Below, one piece after another: positions 8,068 to 24,836 of a stretch of 64,000 nucleotides of DNA (positions are counted from its first letter, which is position 1; each line of letters starts with the position of its first letter). The position numbers were made by a program, and so were the translations under genes. The notes beneath the pieces were generated by a model. That model was not told where the DNA came from, did no database searches, and saw only the letters and a list, made by a program, of their open reading frames with translations. The DNA comes from Oscillospiraceae bacterium (GTDB lineage Bacteria; Bacillota; Clostridia; Oscillospirales; CAG-272): positions 18,021 through 82,020 of the forward strand of contig SVQK01000009.1 in assembly GCA_015065385.1 (NCBI GenBank). The letters run 5' to 3'.

Positions 8068-8116
8068 CCTCCTTCCTTCCAAAGGCAGACCTCCCTTCTG
8101 GGGCAGGGTGAACAGC

Positions 8117-8345: not shown

Positions 8346-10442
8346 ATGTTCGAGAACTACAGAACCTTCTCCTATGATTTTGCCGGAAAGCCGCTCGTGC
8401 TCGAAACCGGCAAAATGGCGGGCCTTGCCAACGGCTCCGTCCTCGTCCGCTACGGCGACACCGCGATTCTCGCCTGCGCCACCGCCTCCGCGAAACCCCG
8501 CGACGGCATCGACTTCCTCCCCCTGTCCATCGACTTCGAGGAGAGACTTTACGCCGTGGGCCGGATACCCGGTTCCTACCTCAAGAGAGAGGGCAGACCG
8601 AGCGAAAAGGCCATCCTCACCGCCCGCGTCATCGACCGCCCCATCCGTCCGCTCTTCCCGAAGGATCTGCGCAACGACGTGGTGATCTCCCTGCTGGTTC
8701 TGGCCGTGGATCACGACTCCTCCCCCGAGATCGCCGGCATGATCGGCGCGTCCGCGGCTCTGGCCATCTCCGATATTCCGTGGAACGGCCCGATCGGCGG
8801 CGTGTTCGTCGGCCTGACCGAGGAAGAGGGACTCATCATCAACCCCACCGCGGAGCAGAGAGAGCGTTCCATCCTCGAGCTGACCGTGGCCGGCACAAAG
8901 GAAAAGGTCGTCATGATCGAGGCGGGCGCCGCCGAAGTCACCGACGACAAGATGTACGAGGCCATCATGATCGCGCACGAGGAGATCAAGAAGCTCGTCG
9001 GCTTCATCGACGGCGTCGTGGCCGAGGTCGGCAAGCCGAAGTTCGAGTATCCCTCCATGGAGCTGGATCACGACATGTTCGACGAGATCTTCGCCTACTG
9101 CGAGAAGGACGTCATGAACGCGCTCGACACCGATGACAAGAACGTCCGCGACGAGAGAATGCAGCCCATCGAGGACGACATCCTTGCGAAATTCTCCGAG
9201 AAGTACGAAGGTCTTGACGTGATGCTCCCCGAGCTCATCTACAAGATCCAGAAGAAGATCGTCCGCCGCTGGCTCCTCGAGGACAAAAAGCGTGTGGACG
9301 GCAGACGCATGGACCAGATCCGTCCCCTCGCCGCCGAAGTTCACCTCTTCGACCGCGACCACGGCTCCGGCATGTTCACCAGAGGCCAGACGCAGGTCCT
9401 CACCGTCGCTACTCTCGGCTCCATCGGCGACGTGCAGATGCTGGACGGCATCTCCGAGGAAGAGACGAAGCGGTATATGCACCACTACAACATGCCCGGC
9501 TATTCCGTCGGCGAGGCCAAGGCGTCCCGTTCCCCCGGCAGACGCGAGATCGGCCACGGCGCGCTTGCCGAGCGTGCGCTGATCCCCGTTCTTCCCTCCG
9601 TGGATGAATTCCCCTACGCCATCCGCTGCGTCTCCGAGGTCATCAGCTCCAACGGCTCCACCTCTCAGGCGTCCGTCTGCGGCTCCACCCTCGCTCTCAT
9701 GGACGCGGGCGTTCCGATCAAGGCTCCCGTCGCCGGTATCTCCTGCGGTCTGATCACCGCCGAGGACGGCAGCTGGACCACCATGATCGACATTCAGGGC
9801 CTCGAGGACTTCTACGGCGACATGGACTTCAAGGTGGCCGGCACCCACAAGGGCATCACCGCCATCCAGATGGACCTCAAGATCGACGGTCTGACCCCCG
9901 AGATCATCAAGGAAGCGCTGGCCGTCACCCATAAGGGCCGCGACTATATCATCGACGAAGTGCTGCTCAAGGCCATTCCCGCTCCTCGCGCCGAGGTTTC
10001 CGAGTACGCTCCCAAGATGATTTCCATGAAGGTTCCGGTCGAGAAGATCTCCGAGATCATCGGCTCCAAGGGCAAGGTCATTCAGGGCATTCAGGCCGAC
10101 ACCGGCGCGAAGGTGGACATCGAGGACGACGGTTCCGTGTTCATCTCCGGCATCGACAAGGACGGCATCATCGCCGCCCAGAAGATGATTCAGGGCATCA
10201 TTTTCGAGCCCGAGATCGGCGCGATCTACGAAGGCGTCGTGACCCGGATCATCCCGATCGGCGCGTTTGTCGAATTTGCCCCCAAGAAGGAAGGCATGGT
10301 CCACATCTCCAAGCTCGACAAGAAGCGCACGGAGAAGGTCGAGGACGTCTGCAACGTGGGCGACCGCATCCGCGTCAAGTTCCTTGGCACCGACGAGAAG
10401 GGCCGCTTCAACCTCTCCCGCCGCGACGCCATGGACGACTGA
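8346..10442 (+). CDS. pnp: Polyribonucleotide nucleotidyltransferase (PNPase)
   Basis: 698 aa. Two RNase PH-like domains, then KH (ISEIIGSKGKVIQ) and S1 (GVVTRIIPIGAFVEF) domains. Confidence 0.97.
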   Translation: MFENYRTFSYDFAGKPLVLETGKMAGLANGSVLVRYGDTAILACATASAKPRDGIDFLPLSIDFEERLYAVGRIPGSYLKREGRPSEKAILTARVIDRPIRPLFPKDLRNDVVISLLVLAVDHDSSPEIAGMIGASAALAISDIPWNGPIGGVFVGLTEEEGLIINPTAEQRERSILELTVAGTKEKVVMIEAGAAEVTDDKMYEAIMIAHEEIKKLVGFIDGVVAEVGKPKFEYPSMELDHDMFDEIFAYCEKDVMNALDTDDKNVRDERMQPIEDDILAKFSEKYEGLDVMLPELIYKIQKKIVRRWLLEDKKRVDGRRMDQIRPLAAEVHLFDRDHGSGMFTRGQTQVLTVATLGSIGDVQMLDGISEEETKRYMHHYNMPGYSVGEAKASRSPGRREIGHGALAERALIPVLPSVDEFPYAIRCVSEVISSNGSTSQASVCGSTLALMDAGVPIKAPVAGISCGLITAEDGSWTTMIDIQGLEDFYGDMDFKVAGTHKGITAIQMDLKIDGLTPEIIKEALAVTHKGRDYIIDEVLLKAIPAPRAEVSEYAPKMISMKVPVEKISEIIGSKGKVIQGIQADTGAKVDIEDDGSVFISGIDKDGIIAAQKMIQGIIFEPEIGAIYEGVVTRIIPIGAFVEFAPKKEGMVHISKLDKKRTEKVEDVCNVGDRIRVKFLGTDEKGRFNLSRRDAMDD

Positions 10443-10481
10443 TCGCGGACGGACGAACAGAATACAGTGAACCGGCAGGAT

Positions 10482-10522
10482 CCGCCGTCTCTCTCATTCC
10501 GGGAGGCACGGCGGGTCTTTTT
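10482..10522 (+). terminator. Rho-independent terminator of pnp
   Basis: CCGCCGU (10482-10488) / ACGGCGG (10508-10514), followed by GUCUUUUU. Confidence 0.65.
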
Positions 10523-10552
10523 CGATTCGCGCGCCTTTTTTTCCCGCGCATC

Positions 10553-10581
10553 TTGATTTATCCGCCGGGATAATCTATAAT
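10553..10581 (+). promoter_or_regulatory. sigma-A promoter of the VanY-like gene
   Basis: TTGATT (10553-10558), 17 nt, TATAAT (10576-10581). Confidence 0.55.
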
Positions 10582-10604
10582 ATAGAATAGTATAGTGTCA
10601 TCAA

Positions 10605-12311
10605 ATGAAGGAACCTGACGTGAACAACTATCCTGACAACAACAGACAGGGCGCGCAGAACCAGCTCCCCCGCACAGCGTCGGCCAACCGGCAGGGAACC
10701 GTTCGGCAGAACAGCCCGCGGCCGAACGCGCCGATGCAGAACGGAGCGGGACAGACGCCCGTTTATCCGCAGAACCCGCAGAACTATCCGCAGGCTCGCC
10801 CGACGAATCAGCAAACCCGCCCGGCCAATCCGCAGACCGGTTATCCGCAGAACGGCTATCCGCGGCAGAATCCGCAGAATCAGACGGGCTACGCGGGCGC
10901 GTACACTCCCGGACAGCGGCAGCCTCAGCAGCAGCCCGGACAACCGCCGCAGCAGGGACGCGCCTATTCCTACAACCGTCCCGCTTCCGCCACCGGAGCC
11001 GCCTACGGATCCGAACACGCGGCCGGGAGCGCGGCGGGAAGACGGCAGCGTGACGCCATGGTCAACCGGCAGGCCGTCCTGAATCAGAAGCGCGAACCGG
11101 TGAAACGGGTGAAGAAGCCCTTCCGCTTCAACTGGGGCGTGGCGGTGTTCCTGCTCCTCTGCGCCGTGGTCATCGGCGTCTCCGTCTGGCAGATCCAGAA
11201 AGCGGGATGGAACGAGACCGGGATCGCCGCGCCGTCCGGACCCGTGGTCAACGCGGAGCCCGGTACATCCGGGAACGGACTGCCCGACGCGCCGACAGCC
11301 GGTGAGACCGGTACGCCCGAGGACAGCGAACCCGCGGGAGCCGTACAGAATACGGACGATCCGGCCCCGGCGGATCCCGAACCGACGGTCGAACCCACGC
11401 CGGACGACGGAGCCGGAGCCTTGGCGCCCGATACGCCCGCCGAAGATGAGAACGCCGTCAACCTGACGCTTTACGATACCGTAACCGTTCCCAACTCGAG
11501 CCTCAACGTCGGGAACCTGATTCTGGTCAACGCCTCCCACGGATACAGCGCGGGGGACGCCTTCGCCGAGCAGGATCAGCTCCGCAACGCCTACCGGGAC
11601 CGCACCGGACGCCTGAAGGTTGCCGCGACCGATATCGGACTGCTTCCCGTCGCCTTTGACGCGCTGGAGAGGATGGTCATCGATCTCGAGGAGGACACGG
11701 GATCCCACGATCTGCTTATCACGAGCGGTCACCGCACCGTGGCGGAGCAGCAGGAGGTCTGGGACTACTATCTGAATCAGAACGGCGAGGAGTACACGAA
11801 CGCCTACGTTGCGAAGCCCGGCTACAGCGAGCACAATACCGGTCTCGCCTGCGACGTCTCGTTCTACACCGACGAGGGCGCGTCCATTCCGGTGGCCTCC
11901 TACGAGCACGGCTGGTGGCTGGGGGAAAACTGCATGCGCGAGGGCTTCATCCGCCGCTATCCGGAGGATAAGGTCGAGATCACCGGCATTTCCAACGAGC
12001 CGTGGCACTTCCGCTACGTCGGGATCCCGCACGCGTGGGTCTGCGCGAAACGGAACTGGTGCCTCGAGGAGTATATCGAGGGCGTGAAGGCCTATTCCTC
12101 CGACGGGATCATGCTGTACGTCACCGCCGACGGCTCCGTCTCCGAAGTGGACGTGCGCGACGGGCTCCCGACCTCCGGCGGATGGCTGGTGTATTACGTT
12201 CCGAAAGGCTCGGTCGGAGGGCAGACGGAGATCAGGGTCCCGCGCGGCTCCGATTACGAGATCTCCGGCAACAACGCGGACGGCTTCATCGTCACGATCG
12301 ACCTCCGCTGA
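10605..12311 (+). CDS. Membrane-anchored D-alanyl-D-alanine carboxypeptidase, VanY / peptidase M15B family, with a long Q/N/P/Y-rich N-terminal tail
   Basis: 568 aa. TM segment FNWGVAVFLLLCAVVIGVSVW. C-terminal motifs SGHRTVAEQ, GYSEHNTGLACDV and EPWHFRYVG are the M15B zinc-peptidase motifs. The start is ambiguous: ATG 10605 lacks an SD, while GTG 10620 follows AAGGAA. Confidence 0.85.
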   Translation: MKEPDVNNYPDNNRQGAQNQLPRTASANRQGTVRQNSPRPNAPMQNGAGQTPVYPQNPQNYPQARPTNQQTRPANPQTGYPQNGYPRQNPQNQTGYAGAYTPGQRQPQQQPGQPPQQGRAYSYNRPASATGAAYGSEHAAGSAAGRRQRDAMVNRQAVLNQKREPVKRVKKPFRFNWGVAVFLLLCAVVIGVSVWQIQKAGWNETGIAAPSGPVVNAEPGTSGNGLPDAPTAGETGTPEDSEPAGAVQNTDDPAPADPEPTVEPTPDDGAGALAPDTPAEDENAVNLTLYDTVTVPNSSLNVGNLILVNASHGYSAGDAFAEQDQLRNAYRDRTGRLKVAATDIGLLPVAFDALERMVIDLEEDTGSHDLLITSGHRTVAEQQEVWDYYLNQNGEEYTNAYVAKPGYSEHNTGLACDVSFYTDEGASIPVASYEHGWWLGENCMREGFIRRYPEDKVEITGISNEPWHFRYVGIPHAWVCAKRNWCLEEYIEGVKAYSSDGIMLYVTADGSVSEVDVRDGLPTSGGWLVYYVPKGSVGGQTEIRVPRGSDYEISGNNADGFIVTIDLR

Positions 12312-12470
12312 CCGGATTTTCCGCGTTTTTCCGGTTCTTCCGCCTCTCTTTCCCCATCGTTCAGCGAACCTTTGACTCGCCGTCATATTCCCGTCACATT
12401 GGGAGGATATAATGACGGCGTAAACGAAAAGGAAGCCGGACGGACTCCCCTCCGGAGAAAGGGAACAGAT

Positions 12471-14366
12471 ATGAAGGACTACGAAAACGAAGACATGATG
12501 ATCGGCGAATCGGACGCGAACGAAGAGAACAGCGCAGTCGAAGAGAACAGCAGCGAAAACGAAACGGTCGGCGCCGCGGAAGAAACGATCGGCGAGATTA
12601 TTGAAGAGACCCTGAGCGAAGAGCGCGACACCGTGAAGAACACGGTCGATGAAGCGGAAACGGTGATCCGCGAGGCCGTCGCCGAAACCGTCCGGGCAGA
12701 CGCGCCTCAGCCTACGAACCCCGCGCCCGCGCACTACGTCCAGGCGGAACCCATGCCCTATGTGCGCCCGGCAGAACAGCCTCAGCCCGTACAGAGCAAT
12801 CCGGCGTACGGATACGGTCAGCCGCATTCCGCTCCCGGGACCGCATGGAACGCGCCCGCCGCCCAGACTCCCCTGAACGCGCAGAACGGGAACGCCGCTC
12901 GCCCCGCTCCTCAGGCAGCCTATACTCCTTACGGCGCGCAGCAGCAGACTCAGGCGGGGATCTGGTCCCCCTATCCGAACGGCGCATACGGCGGAAGCGC
13001 TCAGAACGCCCGGTCCGCCTATCAGGGACAGACCTATAACGCCTACGCCGCAAGAACGGCCTCCCCCGCGGCAAACGGAGGAGAACAGGGTATTTCCTAC
13101 GCCCCCGCGAAGAAGAAGGAGAAGAAGACCGTCGGACTGAAAGCGGTCGCGGCGATCTGCGCGGTGTGCGTGCTGCTCTCCGGCGCGTTCGGATTCGGGG
13201 GCACGGTGCTGGCGAACCGTCTGACCGGCCAAAACGGATCCGTCCAGACGACGACCGACAGTCAGCGTCCCGCGGCTCTTGCGTCCGGCGGCGAATCCGT
13301 CGTGATCTACAAGTCCGTGGACGACGTGGCGACCTCCACCGCGGCCACCTCCGGCGGGGATCTGACCTACGCGCAGGTGGCGGCCCTCGTGAAGGATTCC
13401 GTCGTGGAGATCAACACCGAGTACACCGTCCGCAACTCCTGGTTCCAGTACACCACGGGCGGCGCGGGCTCCGGCGTGATCATCTCAGAGGACGGGTACG
13501 TCATCACCAACGCCCATGTGGTTCTCGACGAACAGATGGCCAATATCGCCGACAACGTGGTGGTCCGCCTCACCGACGGCGAGGAATACACGGCGGAGGT
13601 TCAGCGGTTCGACGCCGACGAGGACATTGCGATCCTCAAGATCAACGCGTCCGGCCTCACTCCCGCCAGAGTCGGCGACAGCGACAGGCTGGTGGTCGGC
13701 GAAGAACTGGTGATCGTCGGCAACCCGCTCGGCGAACTGGGCGGTTCCGTGAGCAACGGCATCGTTTCCGCGACCGAACGTGAGATCCAGGTGGGCGGCG
13801 TGAGCATGCGCCTGATCCAGACCAACGCGGCGGTCAACCCCGGCAACTCCGGCGGCGGCATGTTCAATATGAAGGGACAGCTCGTCGGCATCGTGAACGC
13901 CAAGTCCTCCGGCTCCGGCATCGAGGGCCTCGGCTTCGCCATTCCGATCAATCAGGCCCTGACCGTCACCGAACAGTTGCTGACCTACGGCTACGTCCGC
14001 GGCAAGCCCATGATCGGCGTCAGCTTCGAGGACGTCTCCGGCTCCAACTATTTCTTCTACTACAGCGTCAAGTCCGGCGTGTATGTCAGAAGCCTGACGC
14101 CCGGCATGAACGACAACGTTCTGAAGGAGGGCGACCGGGTGATCGCGGTCAACGGCGAGGAAATCTCCTCCTCCGACGACATCAAGGCCATCATCTACGC
14201 CTCGAACATCGGCGACAAGCTCCTCTTCCAGCTCTACCGCGACAACAGGCTCATGGAGGTCGAGGTCACCTGCTACGAGCGCACGCCCGAGACCACCGGC
14301 TCGTCCATCTCCTTCGGCACGGAAGAGGTTCCCGGGTCTCTCGACGACTTCTTCGGGGGCAGATGA
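12471..14366 (+). CDS. htrA: HtrA/DegP-family serine protease (S1C) with PDZ domain and disordered N-terminal tail
   Basis: Start re-set to ATG 12471 (MKDYENED), in frame with track ORF 12372. TM segment AVAAICAVCVLLSGAFGFGG. Catalytic motifs ITNAHVV, DIAILKI and GNSGGGMFN. C-terminal PDZ. Confidence 0.9.
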   Translation: MKDYENEDMMIGESDANEENSAVEENSSENETVGAAEETIGEIIEETLSEERDTVKNTVDEAETVIREAVAETVRADAPQPTNPAPAHYVQAEPMPYVRPAEQPQPVQSNPAYGYGQPHSAPGTAWNAPAAQTPLNAQNGNAARPAPQAAYTPYGAQQQTQAGIWSPYPNGAYGGSAQNARSAYQGQTYNAYAARTASPAANGGEQGISYAPAKKKEKKTVGLKAVAAICAVCVLLSGAFGFGGTVLANRLTGQNGSVQTTTDSQRPAALASGGESVVIYKSVDDVATSTAATSGGDLTYAQVAALVKDSVVEINTEYTVRNSWFQYTTGGAGSGVIISEDGYVITNAHVVLDEQMANIADNVVVRLTDGEEYTAEVQRFDADEDIAILKINASGLTPARVGDSDRLVVGEELVIVGNPLGELGGSVSNGIVSATEREIQVGGVSMRLIQTNAAVNPGNSGGGMFNMKGQLVGIVNAKSSGSGIEGLGFAIPINQALTVTEQLLTYGYVRGKPMIGVSFEDVSGSNYFFYYSVKSGVYVRSLTPGMNDNVLKEGDRVIAVNGEEISSSDDIKAIIYASNIGDKLLFQLYRDNRLMEVEVTCYERTPETTGSSISFGTEEVPGSLDDFFGGR

Positions 14367-14471
14367 TTCAGCCGGGGGATCGCGGCGAAACAGGACAACA
14401 GAATCAACATCATTCCGCGGGGAGAGCGTCTCAGGTGGCGTTCCTCCCCGCTAAAGGTTCAGGAGAAGGCT

Positions 14472-15176
14472 ATGTATCACATTCTTGTTGTGGACGACGA
14501 GGAAATGATCCGCAAGCTGATCGCCAAATACGCGGTCTACGAGGGACACACGGTCACCGAGGCCGCGGACGGCATGGAGGCCATCGAACAAGTGAAGAGC
14601 GGGAGCTTCGATCTCATGATCATCGACATCATGATGCCGGAGCTGGACGGCTTTTCCGCCTGCCGCGAGATCCGGAAATTCTCCGCGATCCCGATCATCA
14701 TGCTCTCAGCGCGGGGCGAGGAGTACGACAAGATCAACGGCTTCGAGCTGGGGATCGACGACTATGTGGTCAAGCCCTTCTCCCCGAAGGAACTGATGCT
14801 CCGGGTGAACGCCGTCATGAAGCGGGCCGCGGGACGTCAGGGCGCGGAGCGGGAGCCCGAGGAGTCCCGGAACGAGATCGTGGAGCTGGCCGACGGCGGT
14901 CTTCGCGCGGATCTCACGGCGCGGATCGTCTATGTGGACGGCAAACGGGCCGACATGACTCCGAAGGAATACGACCTGTTCTTCTATATGCTGAAAAACC
15001 GGAATATCGCCCTGACCCGGGAAAAGCTGATCACCGAGGTCTGGGGCTACGACTATTTCGGCGACGACCGGACGCTCGATACGCACATCAAGCTCCTGCG
15101 CAAGAGCCTCGGCAGGTACGCTGATTTCATCGTCACGCTGCGCGGCGTCGGGTACCGGTTCGATGCGGACAGATAA
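14472..15176 (+). CDS. OmpR-family response regulator (CssR-like)
   Basis: 234 aa. Receiver motifs ILVVDDE, DLMIIDIMMPELDG and KPF. Winged-helix output domain LTPKEYDLFFYM...GVGYRF. Confidence 0.93.
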   Translation: MYHILVVDDEEMIRKLIAKYAVYEGHTVTEAADGMEAIEQVKSGSFDLMIIDIMMPELDGFSACREIRKFSAIPIIMLSARGEEYDKINGFELGIDDYVVKPFSPKELMLRVNAVMKRAAGRQGAEREPEESRNEIVELADGGLRADLTARIVYVDGKRADMTPKEYDLFFYMLKNRNIALTREKLITEVWGYDYFGDDRTLDTHIKLLRKSLGRYADFIVTLRGVGYRFDADR

Positions 15177-16683
15177 AAAAAGCGGCGCGGCAGCCGGGGG
15201 CAGGGGATCCGGGATCTCCTTCCGGACGCGGATGATTTTTGCGTTCGGGCTCTTTACCGCGATCGTCATCATTCTTTTGTGGATGTTCCAGACGCTGTGG
15301 CTCGACGATATCTACCGCTCTCTGAAACTGCGGGAGCTGGACCGGTGCGCGGACGCCGCCGTATCCGCCGCTGCCTCCTCGGACGACGCGGACGCTTTCG
15401 ACGACGCGCTCAGCGATCTGGCGAAGAAATACGAGATCTGCCTTTCCCTCTACCGGATCAGCGGGACCTCGGCCTCGCCTGTGACGAAAAAGCACGTCAA
15501 CTCCTTCTGCTATATACACAATTCCTCGAGCAACGACACGCTGAACCGCTTCTACTGGAGCGCGGCCAAGGCCGGCGGGGAATACACGGAGCTGATTTCG
15601 CTGAACAGCCTGTTCGGAAGGAACCGGGGCGGGGAAATGGCCGCGGACGCCGGTGAGAACATGATCTCCGTGCGCCTCCTCTCCGAGGGCGACTCCACGC
15701 TCATGCTGCTGTTCAATACGGAGCTTGTGCCTCTGAGCTCGACGGTCAAGACCCTGAACGCGCAGCTTGTGTGGATCACGGCGATCCTTCTCGTGATCGG
15801 CGTCGCGCTGGCGCTGTTCCTGTCCGACCGCATGTCGAAGCCGATCCGGCAGATGAGCGGGGAAGCGTCTCGGCTCGCGCTCGGGGATTACAACGTCAAC
15901 TTTGACGGGAGCGGATGCGCGGAAACGGAAAATCTGTCCGCTACCCTGAACCGGGCGGCGTACGAGCTCGGACGGCTTGACCGGATGCAGAAGGATCTCA
16001 TCGCCAACGTGTCCCACGACCTGCGCACGCCCCTGACCATGATCGCGGGCTATACGGAGATCATGCGGGACATTCCCGGCGAGGCGACTCCGGAAAACTT
16101 CCAGATCGTGCTGGACGAGTGCGACCGCTTGACGAATCTCGTGACGGACATGCTCGAGGTTTCGAAATACCAGAACGGAACGCAGAAGCTGAACGTGACC
16201 CTGTTCAACTTCACGGACGTGATCCGGCGCACGCTCGAACGGTATCAGAAGCTGCGGGAGCACGACGGCTATGTGATCCGGTTCGAGTCGGAGCGGGACG
16301 TCTTTGTGAAGGGCGACGAGGGACGGCTTCTTCAGGTGATCTATAACCTTGTGAACAACGCCGTGAACTATACGGGAGCCGACAAGACGGTGGTGATCCG
16401 TCAGACGGAGACCGTCGGAGAGGACGGCAGCCCGGAAGTCCTCGTGGAAGTGATCGACACGGGCGACGGCATCCCGGAGGAGGATCTGCCCCTTGTGTGG
16501 GAGCGCTATTATAAAGCCCGCGATTTCCACAAGAGGGCGAATATGGGAACGGGCCTCGGTCTCTCCATCGTCCGGGGGATCCTTCTGCTCCACAACGCCA
16601 GCTTCGGCGTCCAGAGCAAGGTCGGCTCCGGCAGCAACTTCTGGTTCCGCCTGAAAACCGAACCCGCTCCGGCCGAGCAGTGA
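15163..16683 (+). CDS. Sensor histidine kinase (CssS-like)
   Basis: 506 aa, overlaps the regulator by 14 nt. Two TM segments flank an extracytoplasmic loop. H-box VSHDLRTPL. N and G boxes NLVNNAVNYT and GTGLGLSIV. Confidence 0.9.
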   Translation: MRTDKKSGAAAGGRGSGISFRTRMIFAFGLFTAIVIILLWMFQTLWLDDIYRSLKLRELDRCADAAVSAAASSDDADAFDDALSDLAKKYEICLSLYRISGTSASPVTKKHVNSFCYIHNSSSNDTLNRFYWSAAKAGGEYTELISLNSLFGRNRGGEMAADAGENMISVRLLSEGDSTLMLLFNTELVPLSSTVKTLNAQLVWITAILLVIGVALALFLSDRMSKPIRQMSGEASRLALGDYNVNFDGSGCAETENLSATLNRAAYELGRLDRMQKDLIANVSHDLRTPLTMIAGYTEIMRDIPGEATPENFQIVLDECDRLTNLVTDMLEVSKYQNGTQKLNVTLFNFTDVIRRTLERYQKLREHDGYVIRFESERDVFVKGDEGRLLQVIYNLVNNAVNYTGADKTVVIRQTETVGEDGSPEVLVEVIDTGDGIPEEDLPLVWERYYKARDFHKRANMGTGLGLSIVRGILLLHNASFGVQSKVGSGSNFWFRLKTEPAPAEQ

Positions 16684-16707
16684 GCGGGAATATGAAACGA
16701 GACTGAT

Positions 16708-16757
16708 AAAACCCGCGCGGGGAGATTCGTACGATCTCTTCCGCGCGGGCGTTTTTT
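16708..16757. terminator. Bidirectional terminator between convergent kinase and SBP genes
   Basis: CCCGCGCGG (16712-16720) / CCGCGCGGG (16741-16749). A-run upstream, T-run 16752-16757 downstream. Confidence 0.75.
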
Positions 16758-16771
16758 GATTCTGCCGGAGG

Positions 16772-18289
16772 TTATCCTTCCAGCTTGTCGATGAGCTTCT
16801 TGAGGGTCTTCGCCCATACCTTTTCGTTTTTCTTGAGCGTGGACGCGAACTCGTCGTTCTGGATGTTGTTGTAGAAGATGTCCATCAGGGAGCCGACGGA
16901 GTCGCCCCAGTAGAAGCAGAAGTCGGCCGTGATGCTGTCGTGGATCATGTCGATCATCTGCGCGGTGGTGGCGTCGCGGCTGTATTTGTTTTTCAGCGCG
17001 AGGTCGTAGTACGCCGGGATGACGATCTTCGAGGTCATGGAGCAGTCCGCCTCGAGCCACGTTGCGATCATGGGGATCCGGTCGGCGGGAAGGGTGGTCG
17101 GGCATCCGTAGATCGGCACGCCGTCGTACTGGTTGACCCGGTAGGTCTCCTGCTGGTCGTCGTACTTCGGCAGGGGAATGATCATGAAGTCGGACTCCAT
17201 GCTCCGGACCTTTTCGTTGCCCGCGAGCCCGATGGTGTAGGGGCAGAAGAGCAGCCGGTCCCCGGTGAACATATCCACGGCGGTCCCGTCGAAGTCGGCG
17301 TTGTCGAGCATCAGCGCGTAGTTCGTATTGTAGTAGATGTTGTGGAGCTTGTTGAAGACGTCTACGGTGTGCTCGTTGTTCAGCACGACGGAATAGTTTC
17401 CGCCGTCGTCGATTCCGGTGTAAGTAACGCCGTTTGCGAAGACCATGCCGTTCAGGGTGTGCCCTTTCTGCATGACCACGCCGAACGCGTCCGCCTTGTC
17501 CACCTCGGAGTTGCCGTTCAGATCCTGATAGACGCCCTCGCAGAGAGACGCCATCTTGTCAAGCGTCCATCCGCCCTCCAGCACCATGCCGTAGACGTCC
17601 TCGCCGGGATAGAAGTTGTTGAGGACGGTGTTGTTGACGAACATGGCGTAGATGATGGAGATGAAGTTGTGGGTGAGGTCTTCGGAGAGCCAGTAGATGT
17701 TGTCCTTGTAGTTGATGTTCTCGATGTAGAGCTGACTCCAGTACGGCGCCTGAATGTCGATCGTGTCCATGAAGCCGTTTTCGTTGAGCTTCATCACGAT
17801 CCCGGACGCGGCCAGCGCCACGTTGAACCGGGTGTGTCCCACGAAAACGTCGTAGTCGTCGCTCCCCGCGGTGACGGACTGGGTCGCGGTGGCGGAGAAA
17901 TTGCCGTAGCCCGTCTTCTCGCAGAGCCTCATTCCCGCGTTCATGCGGGAGAGAAGGGCCTCGTTCCTGCGCCAGTACGCGTCGGCGATCGTGGCGTCGA
18001 GCTGCGTGCCGCCGGACGTTCCGTCTTCGTCCAGCTCCACGGAATGGGTTTCCTCCGCGGTGAGGAAGCGGACCTCGTAGCCGTCCCAGTCCATGGTCTC
18101 GGGCAGGTTGTCGAGGTAGGGCTTTTCCGTCTCCTCCGGTTCGGCGTCCACGGCGTCCGCAGCGGAGGGAGAGGACGCGCCGCCCTGTTCTCCGGGATCG
18201 GAGCCGTTGGCGCAGGACGCGAGGGCGGAAAGGGCGAGCAGGCCGGAGAGGGCGGCACAGAGAAGTCGGGAGAGAATGGAGCTTTTCAT
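16772..18289 (-). CDS. Extracellular solute-binding lipoprotein (family-1, LplA/YtcQ-like about 500-aa type), orphan
   Basis: 505 aa. Signal peptide plus lipobox LALSALASC. RBS AGGAGGCAAC-ATG. Paralogous in length and motifs to 49510-51033. No adjacent permease or ATPase genes. Confidence 0.85.
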   Translation of the reverse strand: MKSSILSRLLCAALSGLLALSALASCANGSDPGEQGGASSPSAADAVDAEPEETEKPYLDNLPETMDWDGYEVRFLTAEETHSVELDEDGTSGGTQLDATIADAYWRRNEALLSRMNAGMRLCEKTGYGNFSATATQSVTAGSDDYDVFVGHTRFNVALAASGIVMKLNENGFMDTIDIQAPYWSQLYIENINYKDNIYWLSEDLTHNFISIIYAMFVNNTVLNNFYPGEDVYGMVLEGGWTLDKMASLCEGVYQDLNGNSEVDKADAFGVVMQKGHTLNGMVFANGVTYTGIDDGGNYSVVLNNEHTVDVFNKLHNIYYNTNYALMLDNADFDGTAVDMFTGDRLLFCPYTIGLAGNEKVRSMESDFMIIPLPKYDDQQETYRVNQYDGVPIYGCPTTLPADRIPMIATWLEADCSMTSKIVIPAYYDLALKNKYSRDATTAQMIDMIHDSITADFCFYWGDSVGSLMDIFYNNIQNDEFASTLKKNEKVWAKTLKKLIDKLEG

Positions 18290-18334
18290 GTTGCCTCCTG
18301 TATGTAGAAAGAATTTGAACGGATGGACGGCGGG

Positions 18335-20491
18335 TCAGATCCCGTGTTCCGTCCGGAGGATGACCTCCTCCTGCATGGTGGGGGAGAGGCGGGTGAAATA
18401 GTCGCTGTAGCCTCCGATGCGGACGATCAGATCTTCGTATTCTTCGGGACGGATCCGCGCCCGCTCGAGGGTTTCCCGGTCGGTCACGTTGATCTGCATT
18501 TCGAATCCGCCGCGCGCGAGGTAGGTCTTGACGATGGACTTCATGACGGGCAGGGAGTCCGGGGTGAAGAGGGATTTCGAGAACTTCATGTTGACCGCCA
18601 CCCCTCCGATGAAGGGCCAGTGCTCCCACGAGGTGGAGGACAGCACCGACGCCGTGGGACCGCAGGCCTCCCGCCCCTGAGCCGGACCGGATCCGTCGCC
18701 GAGCGGGAATCCGGCATGCCGTCCGTCCGGAGTCGCGCCGGTCGAGCGCCCGAAATGATCGTGCATGATCCAGCAGAAGAGGGAGGGGATGAGGCGGCCG
18801 GACCGTTCTCCGTCTCCGTCCGTGAGGGGAACCCGGTGCTTTTCGCACTCCGACGCGAGAAAGTCCGCAATGGTCTTCACATACGCGTCGGGCGAGTCCG
18901 GGGAGCGGTCGTCAGAGCCGTATTTCGGCAGGCTCCGGATCCGCGCGAGCAGGGCGGGATCGTCCCGGTAGTCCGTGTCGAGCGCCTGTTTCCAGTCGGC
19001 AAAGGTGGTTTCGTGCCTCTCGTAGATCAGCGTGCGGATCGCATAGAGCGCGTCGGCGGCGTTGGCCACTCCCACGAAGGACGGCATGATCCAGTTGTAC
19101 CGCGCCCCGCCCTCCTCGATATCGACCCCGCGCTCGAGGCAGTCCCGGACGAAGCAGGACAGGAGCGGATCGGCGCAGTATTTCGCGCGCTCGTATCGGT
19201 ACAGGCTTTCCCGGCGGCAGTTCTCGCGGATGAGCCCCGCGACGCGTCCGAAATACCGTCCGACGAAGTCCTCCATGGTGGCCGGCGCGTCCGTGTCACA
19301 GGACGGGAAGACCGCGAGCAGCTCGCCGGGGAGATTCATGTACGGGGAAGCCACCCAGACGTTCGAGCACCCGACCGGGGTGATCTCCACGCAGGTGGAA
19401 TGGATGTACTCCGCGGATTCTTCCGCAGTGAGCCCGTAGTGGGAAAGGCCGCGGCGGATCGTGGCGTCTCCGAAGAGCGCGGGGTGGGAATGCCCTTCCG
19501 CGAGGATTTCCAGTGCGAGATCGAGATCCTCCTCCGGCGTGTCCTCCGTGACGCAGAGGCCGACCGAGGGATAGACCAGCCCGACCTGACGGATGGCCTC
19601 GAGGAACATTCGGGTGAGCGGATTCGAGACCGTCGTCCCGTCCGCAAGGCTCCCCCCGACCATCAAGCCGCAGGACAGGCCGTTCGGGACCCGCCGGTTG
19701 ATCTGGACGCATAGGCAGTCGATGAGGGTCTGGGCCTCCCCGTCCGTGAGGATCCCCGCCGCCTTGTCCCGCTCGTAGTACGGAGCCAGCCATCGGTCCG
19801 GATGACCCAGCTGGAACTGCAGAAGGGACGGGCGGAGCGGCTTGACGGAAAGCGCGTAGGTGACGAAGGCCGCGGACTGCGCCGCTTCCCGGAAGGTTTC
19901 GGCGGGGTGGAGCGGAACTTTCCGGCAGATTTCGGCGATCGTGCGGTATTCTTCCCTTTGCGTTGGATCGGGTTCGGTCTCCGCCAGCTCGTCCGCGCGG
20001 TCCGCATACCGTTTCGAGAGGATCTCCACACCTTCGAGGCAGATCTTCGCGGCTCTGTAAAAATCCTCCTTCCGCACGGAGCGGGGATCGTCCGGGTCGA
20101 GCGCGGCGATATGCCGGTCGATCAGGGCGCGGATCCCGGAGGTCCCGAGGGAGAGCAGGCGGGGGTAGTCGATCGCCATGTGGGAGTCCTGACCCACGGC
20201 GCAGTGGGAGAAGCGGGCGGCCTCATTCGCGCGTCGAAACCGCTCTTCCTCCTCCGGCGTATGGGGAGAGGACGCGGGACGTCCCACGATGAGCTCGCCC
20301 GGCTCGATGTCCACGGTCCAGCGGGAATACGCCTCCCGGACCGCTTCGGCAAGACGGCATTTGAAGGACGGATTGCCGTACCGTTCGAGATACGCGGCGT
20401 TGAAGAACGAATAGAATTCGTCGTAGCTGACCGCGGGTTTCAGGGCGCGTTCCCTGAGCCGGTCGATTCTCGGTTTGTCGTATGCGTTCAT
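18335..20491 (-). CDS. Glycyl radical enzyme, PFL2/glycerol-dehydratase-like family, short (718 aa) form of unknown substrate
   Basis: C-terminal glycyl radical motif LIVRIGGYSDYFTRL. Catalytic Cys-Glu in IHSTCVEITPVG. RBS GGAGGACTC-ATG. The start overlaps the upstream stop (ATGA). Confidence 0.9.
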   Translation of the reverse strand: MNAYDKPRIDRLRERALKPAVSYDEFYSFFNAAYLERYGNPSFKCRLAEAVREAYSRWTVDIEPGELIVGRPASSPHTPEEEERFRRANEAARFSHCAVGQDSHMAIDYPRLLSLGTSGIRALIDRHIAALDPDDPRSVRKEDFYRAAKICLEGVEILSKRYADRADELAETEPDPTQREEYRTIAEICRKVPLHPAETFREAAQSAAFVTYALSVKPLRPSLLQFQLGHPDRWLAPYYERDKAAGILTDGEAQTLIDCLCVQINRRVPNGLSCGLMVGGSLADGTTVSNPLTRMFLEAIRQVGLVYPSVGLCVTEDTPEEDLDLALEILAEGHSHPALFGDATIRRGLSHYGLTAEESAEYIHSTCVEITPVGCSNVWVASPYMNLPGELLAVFPSCDTDAPATMEDFVGRYFGRVAGLIRENCRRESLYRYERAKYCADPLLSCFVRDCLERGVDIEEGGARYNWIMPSFVGVANAADALYAIRTLIYERHETTFADWKQALDTDYRDDPALLARIRSLPKYGSDDRSPDSPDAYVKTIADFLASECEKHRVPLTDGDGERSGRLIPSLFCWIMHDHFGRSTGATPDGRHAGFPLGDGSGPAQGREACGPTASVLSSTSWEHWPFIGGVAVNMKFSKSLFTPDSLPVMKSIVKTYLARGGFEMQINVTDRETLERARIRPEEYEDLIVRIGGYSDYFTRLSPTMQEEVILRTEHGI

Positions 20492-21633
20492 GAGTCCTCC
20501 GGCGGCAGAAGCCGATCGATGAAACGCCGGGCCCCTTTTCCGAGTCCGTCCGCAATCGCCCCGAAGAGTGCCGGGATGTGCAGAAGACGGGAGAGCATGC
20601 GGCGCAGGAAATCCGCCATGGAGCAGAGCAGGAACAGGGAGAGCGTCACGGCGGGCAGATAGAGGAAGATCTTGGGGGATTTCGCCCAGCGTGAGAGCTT
20701 GAGCGTGTCCCAGATCAAAGCCTCGAGCTCGTCCTGCTCATGGATCAGATAGACGCCGAAGGTCAGGGGAGCGAAGAACCCGATCAGAGCCCGTGAAACG
20801 CGCCCCTCGATATTCAGATTCAAAAAGAAGAGGAAGAAGCACACCGACGCCGCGACCACGGGCAGGGAATTGTACTGCATGAAGACCTTCAAAAACTCCG
20901 ATCCGAATCTGAACCGGTAGTAGAGGACCGTCATGAGGATCCGGGAGAGTGCGGTGAGAACGGAGAGCAGGAAATACCACAGCAGCCAGCGGCGTTTTTT
21001 CGGCGGGTATTTTCTCAGATACGCGGCGGTGACGTACAGCACGATGAAGGAGGTATAGCTGTAGCCACCGTGAAGGTTGGCGAAATCGAGCCAGTAGACC
21101 AGATTCCGCCCCGCGACGAACAGGCCCCAGAGGGCTGCGACGGCGATGAAGTGCTCCCGGCGGCTGAGCCCCTCAAGCGCGCGGTTCAGAAGCGGCGTCA
21201 GGGCGTAAAGGATGACGTACGCCGTGGCGAACCAGTACCGTGTGCCCGTGACGGCGGCAAAAGCGGTAAGCAGTCCCCCCGGCGTGAAGACCGCCTTTTT
21301 CAGCGCGCAGAGGATCAGATAGACGGCGGCGGAGGTGAAGTCGATCTGTCCCCAGAGGAGCAGGAGCTTTTTCAGCTTGAACCGGGAGGCGGACTGATAG
21401 TATCCGGTGATCAGCACGAAGCAGTTCACCATGACGTAGCAGCAGCCCTCGATGAGCCATCCGATATGGAAATTGACGTCCGTCGGGCGGAGGGAGCTCA
21501 GCACCTTTCCGTGAACGAAAAAGTGGCTCGTCAGAATCATCATCATGCAGACGATGCGCAAAAGGTCCGGCCCGGCGGCTCGTTCCGCGCGGCGATCCGT
21601 CCCGGAGGGAGAGGCGATTGAAAGAAAATTCAT
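20488..21633 (-). CDS. Acyltransferase family 3 (OafA-like) integral membrane protein
   Basis: 381 aa with about 10 predicted TM segments. The N-terminal PDLLRIVCMMMILTSHFFVHG matches the AT3 start motif (LDxLRxxAxxxVxxxH). Confidence 0.85.
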   Translation of the reverse strand: MNFLSIASPSGTDRRAERAAGPDLLRIVCMMMILTSHFFVHGKVLSSLRPTDVNFHIGWLIEGCCYVMVNCFVLITGYYQSASRFKLKKLLLLWGQIDFTSAAVYLILCALKKAVFTPGGLLTAFAAVTGTRYWFATAYVILYALTPLLNRALEGLSRREHFIAVAALWGLFVAGRNLVYWLDFANLHGGYSYTSFIVLYVTAAYLRKYPPKKRRWLLWYFLLSVLTALSRILMTVLYYRFRFGSEFLKVFMQYNSLPVVAASVCFFLFFLNLNIEGRVSRALIGFFAPLTFGVYLIHEQDELEALIWDTLKLSRWAKSPKIFLYLPAVTLSLFLLCSMADFLRRMLSRLLHIPALFGAIADGLGKGARRFIDRLLPPEDS

Positions 21634-21739
21634 GATTCATTCATGGAAACGGCATGAAAGCCGCCCCGGTTGGTGTTATTATTCTCGTGAACTTTACCAG
21701 AACACTGCGGCTTTGCCCGGCGGAGAAGAGGAACGCAAC

Positions 21740-22177
21740 ATGCTCGAGGACCACATCATCCGGATCAGCGACAAAATCCACCTGAATTTTTATAAGCGTC
21801 TCTTTTCCATCATCAAGGAACGCGAGGGCAGTCTGACGGCGATGGAGGTCTTTGCGGTGGAGGTGATCCACGCGCTGGGTACGCCCACCATCAGCGAGTT
21901 CGCGGACTTTCTCGGCATCTCCCGGCCCGGAGCTTCCTACAAGGTGGCGTCCCTGATCCAGAAGGGCTACATCGTGAAGGAGGCGTCCACCGACGACAAG
22001 CGGGAATTCCGCCTGACGCTGACGGACAAGTACTACAACTACATCGGTCTGTACGAGGACGGACTCCGGGAGTATGTGGCGAAGCTCGAGGAGAACTTCA
22101 GCAAACGCCAGCTCGAAGCCTTCGAATCCGTCCTGAGCCGGGTCGAGGAGGAAATCGACGCGTTTCCGAACAACTGA
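21740..22177 (+). CDS. MarR-family transcriptional regulator
   Basis: Start re-set to ATG 21740 behind GGAGAAGAGG (track ORF begins at 21545), giving 145 aa. Winged HTH ISEFADFLGISRPGASYKVASLIQKGYIVK...DDKREFRLTLT. Divergent from the AT3-GRE operon. Confidence 0.85.
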   Translation: MLEDHIIRISDKIHLNFYKRLFSIIKEREGSLTAMEVFAVEVIHALGTPTISEFADFLGISRPGASYKVASLIQKGYIVKEASTDDKREFRLTLTDKYYNYIGLYEDGLREYVAKLEENFSKRQLEAFESVLSRVEEEIDAFPNN

Positions 22178-22243: not shown

Positions 22244-23593
22244 TTATTTCCGGATCAGATCGAACGTGGCCTTGGCGAGGTCGCGGACTTCCACCAGATT
22301 GTACCCTTCGATCGAGGTGTACAGCCGCTTTTCGAAGGGCGCGGACCAGTACGGATCGATGGCCGACTCGCCGTTCCGGATCCCGACGATCGAGCCGACG
22401 GTCGCGCCGTTGCAGTCGGTGTCGAAGCAGGACTGTACGGCGAGGCAGACCGAAGTCCCGAAGTCCCCGCCGCCGCAGAGAAGCGCCATCGTCACGATCA
22501 TGGCGTTGGAGTTGGTGTAGCACCAGTCGTTCGCGGAATACTCGTTGAACCGGGTGTGGATGTGTTCGATGATCTGATCCGCGCTCTTTCCCGCGTCGTA
22601 CAGGGCGGCGATCTCCCGCACGTCCGCGGCCAGGCGGGATTTTGCGGGAATATAGGCGAGCCCGGTTTCGATGACCGCGCGGATGTTGCTTTCGACGGCG
22701 GCCGCGGCGATCATGGCGGCGATGAACATCTCCCCGTAGATGCCGTTTTTGACATGGGAGATGGACGCGTCCCGGAAGGCCATTTCGGCGGCGGCGCGCG
22801 GATCGCCCGGATTGATGTAGCCGAAGAAATCCCCGCGGATCTGCGCCCCGATCCATTCCCGGTAGGGGTTTTTGCGGGTCGCCGTATCGGGAGGCAGAAG
22901 CCCCGCGGCGATGTTGCGGTATGCGGCCCGCTCCGCCGTGCAGGTGGCGAAGGCCGGGATCCACGAGAGCCATCCCTCCGCGACGTCCGCGGGCGTGAAG
23001 TCCCGTCCGTACCGGCTGACCAGCTTCAGGGCGAAGGTGGTGTAGTTGGTGTCGTCGTCCACGGGGGAGGCGTAACGCACGTTGTCCGCGAAGCACGCGC
23101 CGGTCCAGAGCTTGTGCTCCTCAATCAGCTCCGGCGTGAAGGCGGATTTCAGGATATACCCCTTCATGGGCCAGTTTCCGGTGGCTTTGAGCACGGGCCA
23201 GAGGCGGTCCCTTCTCCAGCCTTCCACGGGCTTGCCGAGCAGGCACCCGGCGATCCGCCCGATCCACGCGCCGCGGAGCCGGTCCATGAGCGTCTCGTCG
23301 TCCGGAAGATCGGGCAGAAGCGGCGCTTTTTCCGCGCTCGGGGAGGCGGACAGGATGGCGGGAAGGTCGGAGGGCTCTTCATAGGGAAAATCCCCCCGGA
23401 TGGGTTCGGAGGCCATGACGGCGGCGAGCGCTTCCACGGCGGCCTCGTTGCGGAAGACCAGTTCGTTGTCGGCGGCGACAAAGGCGTTTACGATGCCCTC
23501 GTATCCGGCGACATCCCGGCCTTCTCTGACGCACTGTTCGTATTCGACGCGGATATCGTTTCCCAAGCGGAGCCAGGGTTGGTTTTTCAGCAT
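22244..23593 (-). CDS. ADP-ribosylglycohydrolase-family protein with an N-terminal extension of about 100 aa
   Basis: 449 aa. Motifs DRLRGAWIGRIAGCLLGKPVEG, DDDTNYT and FDTDCNGATVGSIVG (dimetal-binding motifs of the ARH/DraG fold). RBS AGGAGACCGTC-ATG. Confidence 0.85.
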   Translation of the reverse strand: MLKNQPWLRLGNDIRVEYEQCVREGRDVAGYEGIVNAFVAADNELVFRNEAAVEALAAVMASEPIRGDFPYEEPSDLPAILSASPSAEKAPLLPDLPDDETLMDRLRGAWIGRIAGCLLGKPVEGWRRDRLWPVLKATGNWPMKGYILKSAFTPELIEEHKLWTGACFADNVRYASPVDDDTNYTTFALKLVSRYGRDFTPADVAEGWLSWIPAFATCTAERAAYRNIAAGLLPPDTATRKNPYREWIGAQIRGDFFGYINPGDPRAAAEMAFRDASISHVKNGIYGEMFIAAMIAAAAVESNIRAVIETGLAYIPAKSRLAADVREIAALYDAGKSADQIIEHIHTRFNEYSANDWCYTNSNAMIVTMALLCGGGDFGTSVCLAVQSCFDTDCNGATVGSIVGIRNGESAIDPYWSAPFEKRLYTSIEGYNLVEVRDLAKATFDLIRK

Positions 23594-23609: not shown

Positions 23610-24413
23610 TCAGCCGATCAGCTTCTTATAATTGTCGGCGATGTCCCGGTAAGGACGTCCGGCTCCCGATTCGTAGAGGAAGCGTCCGGCGTACCCGACC
23701 TCCTCGAGCGCGTTCAGAATGGCGGGCCAGTCGTTTTTGCCTTCGAGGGGGAGCCAGTGCTTTTCGTCGATAAAATCATAGTCGGACACATGGAGCGTCA
23801 CGATCTTTGCACCCACGGCGCGGATGTAGTGGACGTTGTCCTCCCTCAGGCTGTGGTTCGTGTCGAACACCACCCGCAGATCCGGGATCCGGTTCAGGAA
23901 AAAGAGCATCTCGTCGGAGGTGCGGCAGAGGCAGGTCCGTGGGAGGTTTTCGAGGCAGAGCGTCACGCCCGCGGAGCTCGCCGCATCGGTGACTTTGGCA
24001 ATGACGTCGGCGGCAAGCTCCAGACGTTCGGCGCGCTCGTTTTCCTCATAGGGTTCACCGGACGGATGGATCACGCAGAGTCCGATCCCGGCGTCCCCCG
24101 CGGCGTTCAGAAGCTCCGTCTGCAATTCGACCGCATGGGCGCGGACGGCGGGGTCTCTGTGGGCGGGATCGATTTCGGAAAACGGTCCGAAGGGAAGGTG
24201 GACGGAGGAAACGGTCACACCGCAGGAGCGTGCCAGCGATACGATCTCCTTCGCCTTGTGCGGAAAATCAAGCTCGTTGTAGAAAGGAGCCACGGCTCCT
24301 GAGGACAGCTCGATATGAGCGATCCCGGCGTCCGAGAGCTGCCGGAGCGATTCTTCATTCATGGCGGCGGGACCGACGGACAGGGCGAGAGGCCAGGTTT
24401 GACGGGAAGACAT
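23610..24413 (-). CDS. Sugar phosphate isomerase/epimerase (xylose-isomerase-like TIM barrel, AP_endonuc_2 family)
   Basis: Start re-set to MSSRQTWPL (ATG complement of 24411-24413) behind AGAGGTG, giving 267 aa. Motifs HIELSS, SVHLPFGPF, CLENLP and VFDTNHS. Confidence 0.8.
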   Translation of the reverse strand: MSSRQTWPLALSVGPAAMNEESLRQLSDAGIAHIELSSGAVAPFYNELDFPHKAKEIVSLARSCGVTVSSVHLPFGPFSEIDPAHRDPAVRAHAVELQTELLNAAGDAGIGLCVIHPSGEPYEENERAERLELAADVIAKVTDAASSAGVTLCLENLPRTCLCRTSDEMLFFLNRIPDLRVVFDTNHSLREDNVHYIRAVGAKIVTLHVSDYDFIDEKHWLPLEGKNDWPAILNALEEVGYAGRFLYESGAGRPYRDIADNYKKLIG

Positions 24414-24544
24414 GCGTGTCACCTCTTTGATCGATTTTGGAATCATCGGACAAACGCTTGACGTTTGCGCTTCTTTATTGATTATGTTATCATAAACCCT
24501 CCGGATTTTCAAGGGTTTTGGGGAATTTTTACAGTTCCTTCCTC

Positions 24545-24579: not shown

Positions 24580-24836
24580 AAGAATACAACCGAAAAGGCT
24601 GTGACGGAACGAGTAGGCGTCCCCCCGGTCCTTGGGGGAGCGGCGTTGACAGAGAGCCGGGGACGGTGGAATCCCGGTACGGCGCGGCGTCCGAAAATCA
24701 CTCCCGAGCCGCCGGGTGAGTTCTGCATGACGGAACGAGCCTTGGCCGGAATCCCTCCGTTACCGGGGAACCGTATCGCGCGTGCGGGTGGTCAAGCAGG
24801 TTTTCTGTCCCGGGCTGAGCCGGGATTTTCTTTTTT
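24580..24836 (+). promoter_or_regulatory. T-box riboswitch leader, Ile specifier (AUC)
   Basis: Stem I elements AGAGAG (about 24650) and GGUGGAAUCCC distal loop. Specifier-loop GAAAAUCA with AUC at 24697-24699 followed by a purine. T-box core GCGGGUGGUC (24785-24794). Terminator UCCCGG-GCUGAG-CCGGGA plus UUUUCUUUUUU (24808-24836). Confidence 0.8.

Follow-up and report, generated by a model that had tools for sequence, protein, structure and literature searches.

The Cys-X-Glu (CXE) motif defines the 1,2-eliminases and isomerases among the glycyl radical enzymes (GREs); its glutamate hydrogen-bonds to and deprotonates the substrate hydroxyl, His164 of the glycerol dehydratase (GDH) has been proposed to protonate the leaving hydroxyl, and entire GRE clades are still unannotated (2026 review, PMC13450708). 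Analysing a 64,000-nucleotide stretch of DNA from an Oscillospiraceae bacterium (assembly GCA_015065385.1, contig SVQK01000009.1, positions 18,021 to 82,020; hereafter the window), we found that the gene at 18335-20491 on the minus strand encodes a short, 718-aa CXE-type GRE. Its best sequence and fold matches are the B12-independent GDH of Clostridium butyricum (1R8W/1R9D) and the 1,2-propanediol dehydratase (Roseburia inulinivorans, 5I2A/5I2G; 9RCO), with phmmer scores of 290 and 280 bits, a Foldseek TM score of 0.90 and 27-28% identity. Like these enzymes, the window protein has the ten-stranded barrel, the C-terminal glycine domain and the CXE cysteine loop with the His/Ser/Cys/Glu set kept; unlike them, it lacks about 60 residues between the ELIVG and His motifs, carries Thr instead of Gly before the cysteine and reads RIGGY instead of RVAGY in the glycine loop. 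We consider it likely that the locus encodes a functional short CXE-type GRE served by an activase encoded in trans, and that its surroundings, comprising an acyltransferase-3 (AT3), a lipoprotein resembling a solute-binding protein (SBP) and a MarR regulator, are specific to its lineage.

The window GRE matched the Pfam models PF02901 (PFL-like; 6e-104, 349 bits) and PF01228 (Gly_radical; 8.5e-20, 71.7 bits), and its HSTCVEITPVG and VRIGGYS motifs begin at residues 364 and 690, respectively. The radical glycine is Gly694 (VRIGG694YS; codon 18410-18412), 25 residues before the C-terminus, in a loop that is invariant in 81 family sequences, and the catalytic Cys367 (codon 19391-19393), which aligns with GDH Cys433, is invariant in the family as well. 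Glu369 (codon 19385-19387) completes the Cys-X-Glu loop C367-V-E369 and His104 (codon 20180-20182) aligns with GDH His164, so that His164, Ser282, Cys433 and Glu435 of GDH are kept as His104, Ser222, Cys367 and Glu369. The diol-binding site of GDH, in contrast, is not kept; where GDH has His446 and Asp447, the window protein has Val380 and Ala381, both part of the family-invariant W-V-A-S. Solved GRE structures matched the AlphaFold2 model of the protein (pLDDT 89.6) at Foldseek TM scores of 0.85-0.91, the top-ranked being 1R8W (TM 0.90, 27% identity), while sequence identity to solved GREs was at most 27-28%. The protein scored 341.7 bits against NCBIfam TIGR01774 (PFL2-3), below the family threshold of 678, and 169-295 bits against the equivalog models of HypD, CutC, PflD, HpsG/HpfG and the arylacetate decarboxylases, none of which was passed (cutoffs 1000-1150). 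NCBI annotates the window GRE and its relatives as hypothetical. All defining features of sequence and fold thus identify the protein as a GRE of the CXE class, and membership tests place it outside every characterised GRE family. The original prediction of a genuine, divergent PFL2-type GRE with both loops is therefore upheld by Pfam, motifs and fold, and no clustering with a characterised clade was found, given the low identity, the sub-threshold NCBIfam scores and a separate component in the similarity network.

A relative at 48% identity or more is encoded in 80 species-level genomes, all of uncultured gut or rumen Clostridia, which provide our species-level set of 80 loci; loci of relatives, from genomes and metagenome contigs, are labelled L001-L104 and the window locus WIN. 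The close homologs scored numbered over 2,000, represent at least 80 species and fall into dozens of clusters at 50% identity, and the best 120 full-length homologs were nearly all 694-729 aa long. An exhaustive search of 50%-identity representatives revealed dozens more clusters of 700-740-aa GREs at 31-49% identity to the window protein, with the classical 790-820-aa GREs ranking behind them near 300 bits. Similarity networks at 300-450 bits were too permissive and yielded one giant component; at 500 bits or more, where the network was informative, the window GRE fell in a component of 22 members (680-731 aa, mostly with an S-T-C-V-E loop), separate from the classical x-G-C-V-E component (43 members, median 799 aa). 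The main deletion, of about 60 residues, maps to residues 60-99 of the window protein, after the ELIVG motif and before His104, and is accompanied by two further loop deletions of 7-9 residues, a pattern common to all short representatives. The protein had been described as shorter than characterised GREs, which is arithmetically right, but shortness is normal for this large "STCVE" radiation and reflects one shared deletion.

Conservation across the 81 family sequences reaches 97% or more at 172 of the 718 positions, among them the stretches YIHSTCVEITP..SNVWVASPY and DLVVRIGGYSDYF; Gln225, Gln227, Asp232, Ser376, Asn377, Trp379, Asn466, Trp467, Cys573, Trp574 and His577 are among the family-invariant residues. 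From this conservation the family looks isofunctional. The Y-I-H-S-T-C-V-E-I-T-P cysteine loop, the V-R-I-G-G-Y-S-D-Y-F glycine loop and the deletion of about 60 residues are hallmarks of the clade, and the wider short radiation carries loops of the same type. Together, these data place the window GRE, whose sequence is intact, in a large and uncharacterised clade of short GREs from gut and rumen Clostridia. A literature search retrieved no paper on this clade or its partner genes, and the clade is absent from both the AARE paper and the 2026 review (PMC13450708). Several relatives carry more than one GRE gene. The metagenome loci L101 and L102 hold a second GRE-like gene (8351-10339 and 7648-9636, respectively, both on the minus strand), whose 3' end faces that of the AT3-GRE pair; its 662-aa product is 29% identical to the window GRE and has an A-C-W-E cysteine loop and an R-I-W-G-W glycine loop. 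Two or three GRE paralogs lie within 10 kb of each other in L027, L044 and L079, some with activases of their own, and L044 carries two GRE-activase pairs back to back.

The absence of a radical-SAM CxxxCxxC gene from the 64 kb, claimed earlier, was confirmed in that an ORF motif scan detected no such motif in any real open reading frame (ORF) of the window and tblastn with an activase of the family gave no match. No activase was found within about 10 kb of the GRE in any member of the subclade of the window, which is monophyletic (WIN, L001-L008 and L010, plus the related L081-84, L089-91, L101, L102 and L104), nor within about 5 kb of the 662-aa GRE-like gene of L101 and L102. Adjacency to an activase has been lost in many other branches of the family too. 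In 36 of the 73 family loci that have enough flanking DNA for the count, a gene of about 300 codons begins 0-10 nt past the GRE stop; its product has the motif CPLxCxWC around residue 27 as well as two ferredoxin-like cysteine clusters and matches the Pfam models Fer4_12 and Radical_SAM, features by which it is a standard PFL2-type activase, with the ferredoxin-like insert that the GDH and propanediol dehydratase systems share. These activase-adjacent loci usually have a divergent AraC/cupin regulator as well, which is present in 28 loci. The adjacent activases and these regulators together indicate that the family is an ordinary GRE-plus-activase system.

The cysteine and glycine loops are identical whether or not an activase is adjacent. 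Across ten genomes of the subclade the ratio of nonsynonymous to synonymous substitution (dN/dS) of the GRE was 0.11-0.26, and the least saturated pairs gave 0.114 (WIN-L001) and 0.127 (L004-L005); judged by these ratios the GRE is clearly maintained in the activase-less subclade. Because the catalytic loops are invariant and selection persists although no activase lies nearby, the window GRE is likely served by an activase, dedicated or shared, whose gene lies elsewhere in the genome. The lack of an activase in the 64 kb, and within about 10 kb across the subclade, might instead be taken to mean that the GRE is a relic, a pseudo-enzyme that can no longer be activated, but this is very improbable: the reading frame is uninterrupted, the 172 family-invariant positions, those of both loops among them, are all kept, dN/dS is low, and the identical protein is present in four further independent metagenome assemblies. 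The contigs retrieved with this protein were JGI and Logan contigs of only 4-8 kb.

A more serious alternative, though one we still regard as unlikely, is that the GRE has no activase of its own and is activated in trans by that of another GRE, for example PFL or a short-GRE paralog, with the consequence that one activase would serve several GREs. About half of the family loci are without an adjacent activase, L101 and L102 each have a pair of dissimilar short GREs in tail-to-tail orientation with no activase in view, and L027, L044 and L079 cluster several GRE paralogs with GRE-activase pairs; sharing is plausible because of this second, activase-less GRE and these paralog clusters. Cross-reactivity of activases is documented where glycine loops match, and the specificity and shareability of activases are poorly studied (PMC13450708); moreover, the AARE paper describes one activase shared by two threonyl radical enzymes. 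However, activase specificity has been tied to the glycine-loop sequence (PMC13450708), and the RIGGYSD loop is unlike the RVSGY and RVAGY/F loops of PFL and the classical eliminases; the neighbouring paralog of L101 has yet another loop, RIWGW.

Turning to the reaction, the best reading of the protein, by analogy with characterised CXE-type enzymes, is an eliminase or isomerase acting on a hydroxylated, probably carbohydrate-derived substrate. The radical-SAM activase would place a radical on Gly694, which would generate a thiyl radical on Cys367, and the thiyl radical would take a hydrogen atom from the hydroxyl-bearing (carbinol) carbon. Glu369 would act as the base on the hydroxyl and His104 would aid departure of the neighbouring (beta) leaving group, after which the hydrogen atom would be given back to the product. 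The cognate activase would be the PFL2-type protein of about 300 aa with a ferredoxin-like insert, presumably encoded elsewhere in the genome in the window subclade. The AT3, GRE and SBP genes would probably form one transcript under MarR control, in which the GRE would sit downstream of an AT3 gene of a cell-envelope backbone and its chemistry would be independent of AT3.

Since His446 and Asp447 of GDH are replaced by Val380 and Ala381, the substrate is predicted not to be glycerol or propanediol. The gene contexts loosely suggest a small carbohydrate-derived polyol or an anhydro-sugar: the window carries a xylose-isomerase-like TIM-barrel gene, genes for the glycoside hydrolase families GH95, GH35 and GH20 occur among family neighbours, and AraC/cupin regulators and sugar-type SBP relatives are found at family loci. 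ThuA and Gfo/Idh/MocA, which are associated with sugar oxidation, are encoded directly upstream of the GRE-activase genes in L092 (where the four genes occupy 7988-13050) as well as in L093 and L094, a row that hints at a sugar-derived substrate.

The AT3 gene (20488-21633, minus strand; 381 aa, no SGNH domain) precedes the GRE gene, and its stop and the GRE start share 4 nt (ATGA, 20488-20491). It matched PF01757 over the full domain (6.8e-18, 65 bits; cutoff 31), and its hydrophobicity profile has 11 overlapping peaks, roughly 8-9 distinct segments, as in a multi-pass protein. The spacer between the GRE and the SBP gene (18290-18334, minus strand) is 45 nt long, contains an AGGAGG ribosome-binding site and folds at merely -6.2 kcal/mol with no stable hairpin; a terminator scan gave no terminator-like site in it. 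The SBP gene (16772-18289, minus strand) is followed by a predicted intrinsic terminator (16705-16750, minus strand), absent from the original prediction, whose hairpin (16711-16750, -26.7 kcal/mol) precedes TTTTAT and which, with an A-run before the hairpin, may work in both directions. The gene overlap, the hairpin-free spacer and the strong hairpin past the SBP gene make the three genes look like one transcription unit, and AT3, GRE and SBP are plausibly carried on one transcript that ends at this terminator. The ORF positions, the ATGA overlap and the terminator-free 45-nt gap reported by the original prediction all proved correct.

From this layout it had been proposed that AT3, GRE, SBP and MarR form a new pathway, a radical-chemistry step whose glycan-derived substrate would be acylated or specially transported and in which AT3 and SBP would be obligate partners. 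An AT3 gene immediately precedes the GRE in 6 of the 80 species loci (WIN, L001, L002 and L004-L006), which belong to one sub-lineage, and in the metagenome loci L101, L102 and L104. In all nine the ATGA overlap or a 2-nt spacing is kept, no terminator separates the three genes of the window whereas a strong one lies past the SBP gene, and AT3 (dN/dS 0.10-0.33) and SBP are under purifying selection, all of which speaks for the proposal. Other clades have an EamA transporter gene directly upstream of the GRE (L007, L023 and L061), which makes a membrane protein in this position a recurrent theme. Nevertheless, 74 of the 80 species loci have the same invariant active-site loop and no AT3. In about half of the family the GRE has an identical active-site loop and a canonical activase next to it but no AT3, which argues against a new pathway. 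The SBP gene follows the GRE only in WIN, in L002/L104 and, at a distance of 1.2 kb with an opposite-strand ORF in between, in L013; it is missing in L001, the closest species-level relative (86% GRE identity), where a different gene follows the GRE. MarR is found in few relatives. As a family, CXE-type GREs give aldehydes or ketones rather than the acyl-CoA that serves AT3 enzymes. The neighbourhood is therefore largely unconserved in relatives and the proposal of a dedicated pathway is not borne out; we consider it improbable.

The relatives of AT3 itself also bear on this question. The identities of its homologs fall into two clearly separated ranges, one of at least 53%, which holds the ortholog group, and one of 42% or less, which holds all others; three of five sampled contexts of the ortholog group are without a GRE (L095, L097 and L103). 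In L095 and L103 the AT3 gene (55-58% identical) follows EF-G and is followed by convergent genes for a histidine kinase (HK), a response regulator (RR), HtrA and VanY with no GRE, whereas in L097 it follows a set of ABC sugar-transporter genes. The window genes at 12.4-16.7 kb are 82% (RR), 62% (HK) and 63% (HtrA) identical to those of L095, and in the window lineage the GRE, in some cases together with the SBP, sits between AT3 and the HK gene. The backbone of EF-G, AT3, convergent HK, RR, HtrA-like protease and VanY-like carboxypeptidase spans 6001-13096 in L095, 31-8322 in L103 and 10596-16683 in the window. Because its orthologs hold this backbone without a GRE, AT3 is best seen as a backbone gene beside an envelope-related block, and the arrangement suggests a role in the cell envelope, linked to an envelope-stress two-component system. 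That GRE-less orthologs occur twice in the same backbone is a further argument against AT3 as an obligate partner, and the AT3-GRE-SBP layout, which is confined to one lineage, most likely arose by historical chance. There is only a small chance, in our judgement, that AT3, GRE and lipoprotein are a real functional unit of this Ruminococcaceae lineage, in which AT3 would deliver or modify the substrate (e.g. an O-acylated sugar fragment) or import it and the GRE would draw on a shared, non-adjacent activase; the importer role would parallel that which the EamA gene may have in other clades. If so, this would be an architecture of a GRE pathway not described before. In L003 (73% GRE identity; 2458-3570 and 5757-8015) a phage-type integrase gene occupies the AT3 position and the GRE is followed by a gene of the fucosidase family GH95, an arrangement suggesting that the site has been rearranged or is mobile.

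The lipoprotein encoded downstream (505 aa) has a LASC lipobox with Cys26 and had been called an orphan SBP. No permease or ATPase genes adjoin it in the window. The SBP label, which rests on the lipobox and on remote relatives, is the least secure element of the original prediction. The lipoprotein itself had no Pfam match and no PDB sequence match, while two full-length relatives scored 32 bits against SBP_bac_1 (L007; cutoff 26) and 25.6 bits against SBP_bac_8 (L003; cutoff 27), respectively. The family profile weakly matched the arabino-oligosaccharide binding protein AraN (PDB 6RJY, E=0.0067); hhalign of this profile with a single bona fide SBP gave a non-significant probability of 0.3, and the single-sequence AlphaFold2 model (pLDDT 32) was unusable for fold. 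Judged from these matches the lipoprotein is probably a divergent, carbohydrate-type SBP. In several members of the wider clade of the window (L007, L008, L009 and L089-L091), the GRE is closely followed by a DUF1846 gene of about 494-505 aa (e.g. 12340-13824 in L089).

Upstream of AT3, a divergent gene (21739-22177, plus strand; 146 aa) encodes a MarR-family regulator that matched PF12802 (2.8e-10) and PF01047 (1.8e-9) above cutoffs. The divergent MarR gene of the original prediction is thus confirmed, but the spacer is 105 bp rather than 106; the mechanical ORF starts at 21545 and overlaps AT3, while the conserved start is the ATG at 21739, and the protein is 146-148 aa long in L104 and L002 (a 181-aa call was made in the L081 metagenome assembly). 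Orthologs of MarR were found in L001, L002/L104 and, in a different gene order, L015. Alignment of the MarR-AT3 spacers of WIN, L001, L002 and L104 revealed that a -10-like box and a TTCATG-N7-CATGAA palindrome are kept in this control region (21634-21738), the palindrome lying just upstream of the AT3 start, where no obvious Shine-Dalgarno sequence was seen. An inverted-repeat tool at its settings reported nothing in the spacer, and the 6-bp palindrome was seen only by alignment; we infer that it is a candidate MarR operator.

On the minus strand beyond MarR lie a gene for an ADP-ribosylglycohydrolase-family (ADPRGH-like) protein (22244-23593; 449 aa; PF03747, 7.8e-51) and the gene for the xylose-isomerase-like TIM barrel of the sugar isomerase/epimerase family (23610-24512; PF01261, 1.1e-31). 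The latter, which has weak NCBIfam matches to sugar epimerases and is conserved in L001, L002, L081 and L104, opens a six-gene block (TIM barrel, ADPRGH-like, MarR, AT3, GRE, SBP) that is conserved in the nearest lineages only. A homolog of the ADPRGH-like gene lies directly upstream of the GRE in Candidatus Merdivicinus (GRE 53% identical), where the order is ADPRGH-like, GRE, activase, URO-D-like and EamA with a divergent MarR-MatE pair. Candidatus Merdivicinus intestinigallinarum (L085-L088, equal to L015; about 8.5-14.9 kb in L085) has the most complete and compact version of the locus, which offers a good starting point for experiments, and its protein is indexed in 291 blocks of the sequence collection. 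We rejected ADPRGH as an obligate GRE partner, as its family is very large (7,899 matches) and the 120 closest homologs of the window protein are off GRE contigs; the copy in L015 is more distant from that of the window than all of these 120, and the Merdivicinus link is suggestive only. The literature search gave nothing relevant joining a GRE with either ADP-ribosylglycohydrolase or Acyl_transf_3. An Rfam scan of 14-26 kb of the window returned only a sub-threshold T-box leader-like element (24592-24776, plus strand; RF00230, 31.7 bits against a gathering score of 93, E=5.7e-4), which lies upstream of the isoleucyl-tRNA synthetase gene and implies that the real start of that gene is downstream of the mechanical ORF start at 24601.

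Several observations weigh against the explanation we prefer, that of a functional short GRE with a trans-encoded activase and an incidental gene context. The translational coupling of AT3 and GRE persists over synonymous divergence (dS) above 1 in at least eight genomes, and given this persistence some functional link between the two may exist. No activase was found for this genome in the 64 kb searched of a 94-kb contig. Furthermore, a Pfam census of 130 GRE-flanking genes, skipping activase and AraC, yielded 171 families with none enriched; the top family was AT3 with 5 matches, all in one clade. The substrate assignment is weak, as glycan-related genes are common in these organisms anyway.

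What the locus represents is a member of a subfamily that is uncharacterised, architecturally distinct and frequently without activase adjacency. The clade of short GREs is large, widespread in animal-gut and rumen Clostridia and without published work that we found. Its pocket is predicted to be unlike that of any characterised GRE, so the clade probably has a new substrate and possibly holds a novel anaerobic pathway for a compound of host or dietary origin. As an adjacent activase is missing from about half of the loci, the clade also provides a natural test case for the specificity and sharing of activases. The AT3/SBP/MarR arrangement itself is of minor importance; the locus is less a surprising system than a promising target for the discovery of enzymes and for work on how activases are shared.

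Compared with the described systems beyond sequence and fold, the window shows no microcompartment or aldehyde dehydrogenase context of the kind that accompanies GDH and propanediol dehydratase. The trans-4-hydroxy-L-proline dehydratase HypD (6VXC), which is CXE-type and common in the gut microbiome, gave the best equivalog-level NCBIfam match (NF043068, 295 bits); the window GRE is, however, far under the cutoff of 1100, only 25% identical and without a pyrroline-5-carboxylate (P5C) reductase context. Like stand-alone AT3 O-acyltransferases such as Oac or WecH, the window AT3 matches PF01757 over the full domain, has multiple transmembrane segments and is about 380 aa long. It has no fused SGNH domain, and the envelope-stress-like HK, RR, HtrA and VanY block that adjoins its orthologs suggests a role in the cell wall rather than in GRE metabolism. 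YbiW and PflD (8ID7, 8ID0, 8YJO), which open the rings of 1,5-anhydroglucitol and 1,5-anhydromannitol 6-phosphate, are 23-24% identical to the window GRE, the PflD model scored 237 bits against a cutoff of 1109, and no phosphotransferase system (PTS) or aldolase neighbours were seen. Nonetheless, both are CXE-type enzymes of carbohydrate-derived substrates, match the window GRE at Foldseek TM scores of 0.88-0.90 and include, in PflD, another fairly short protein (765 aa), and it is their setting that the loose sugar-related context seen here resembles.

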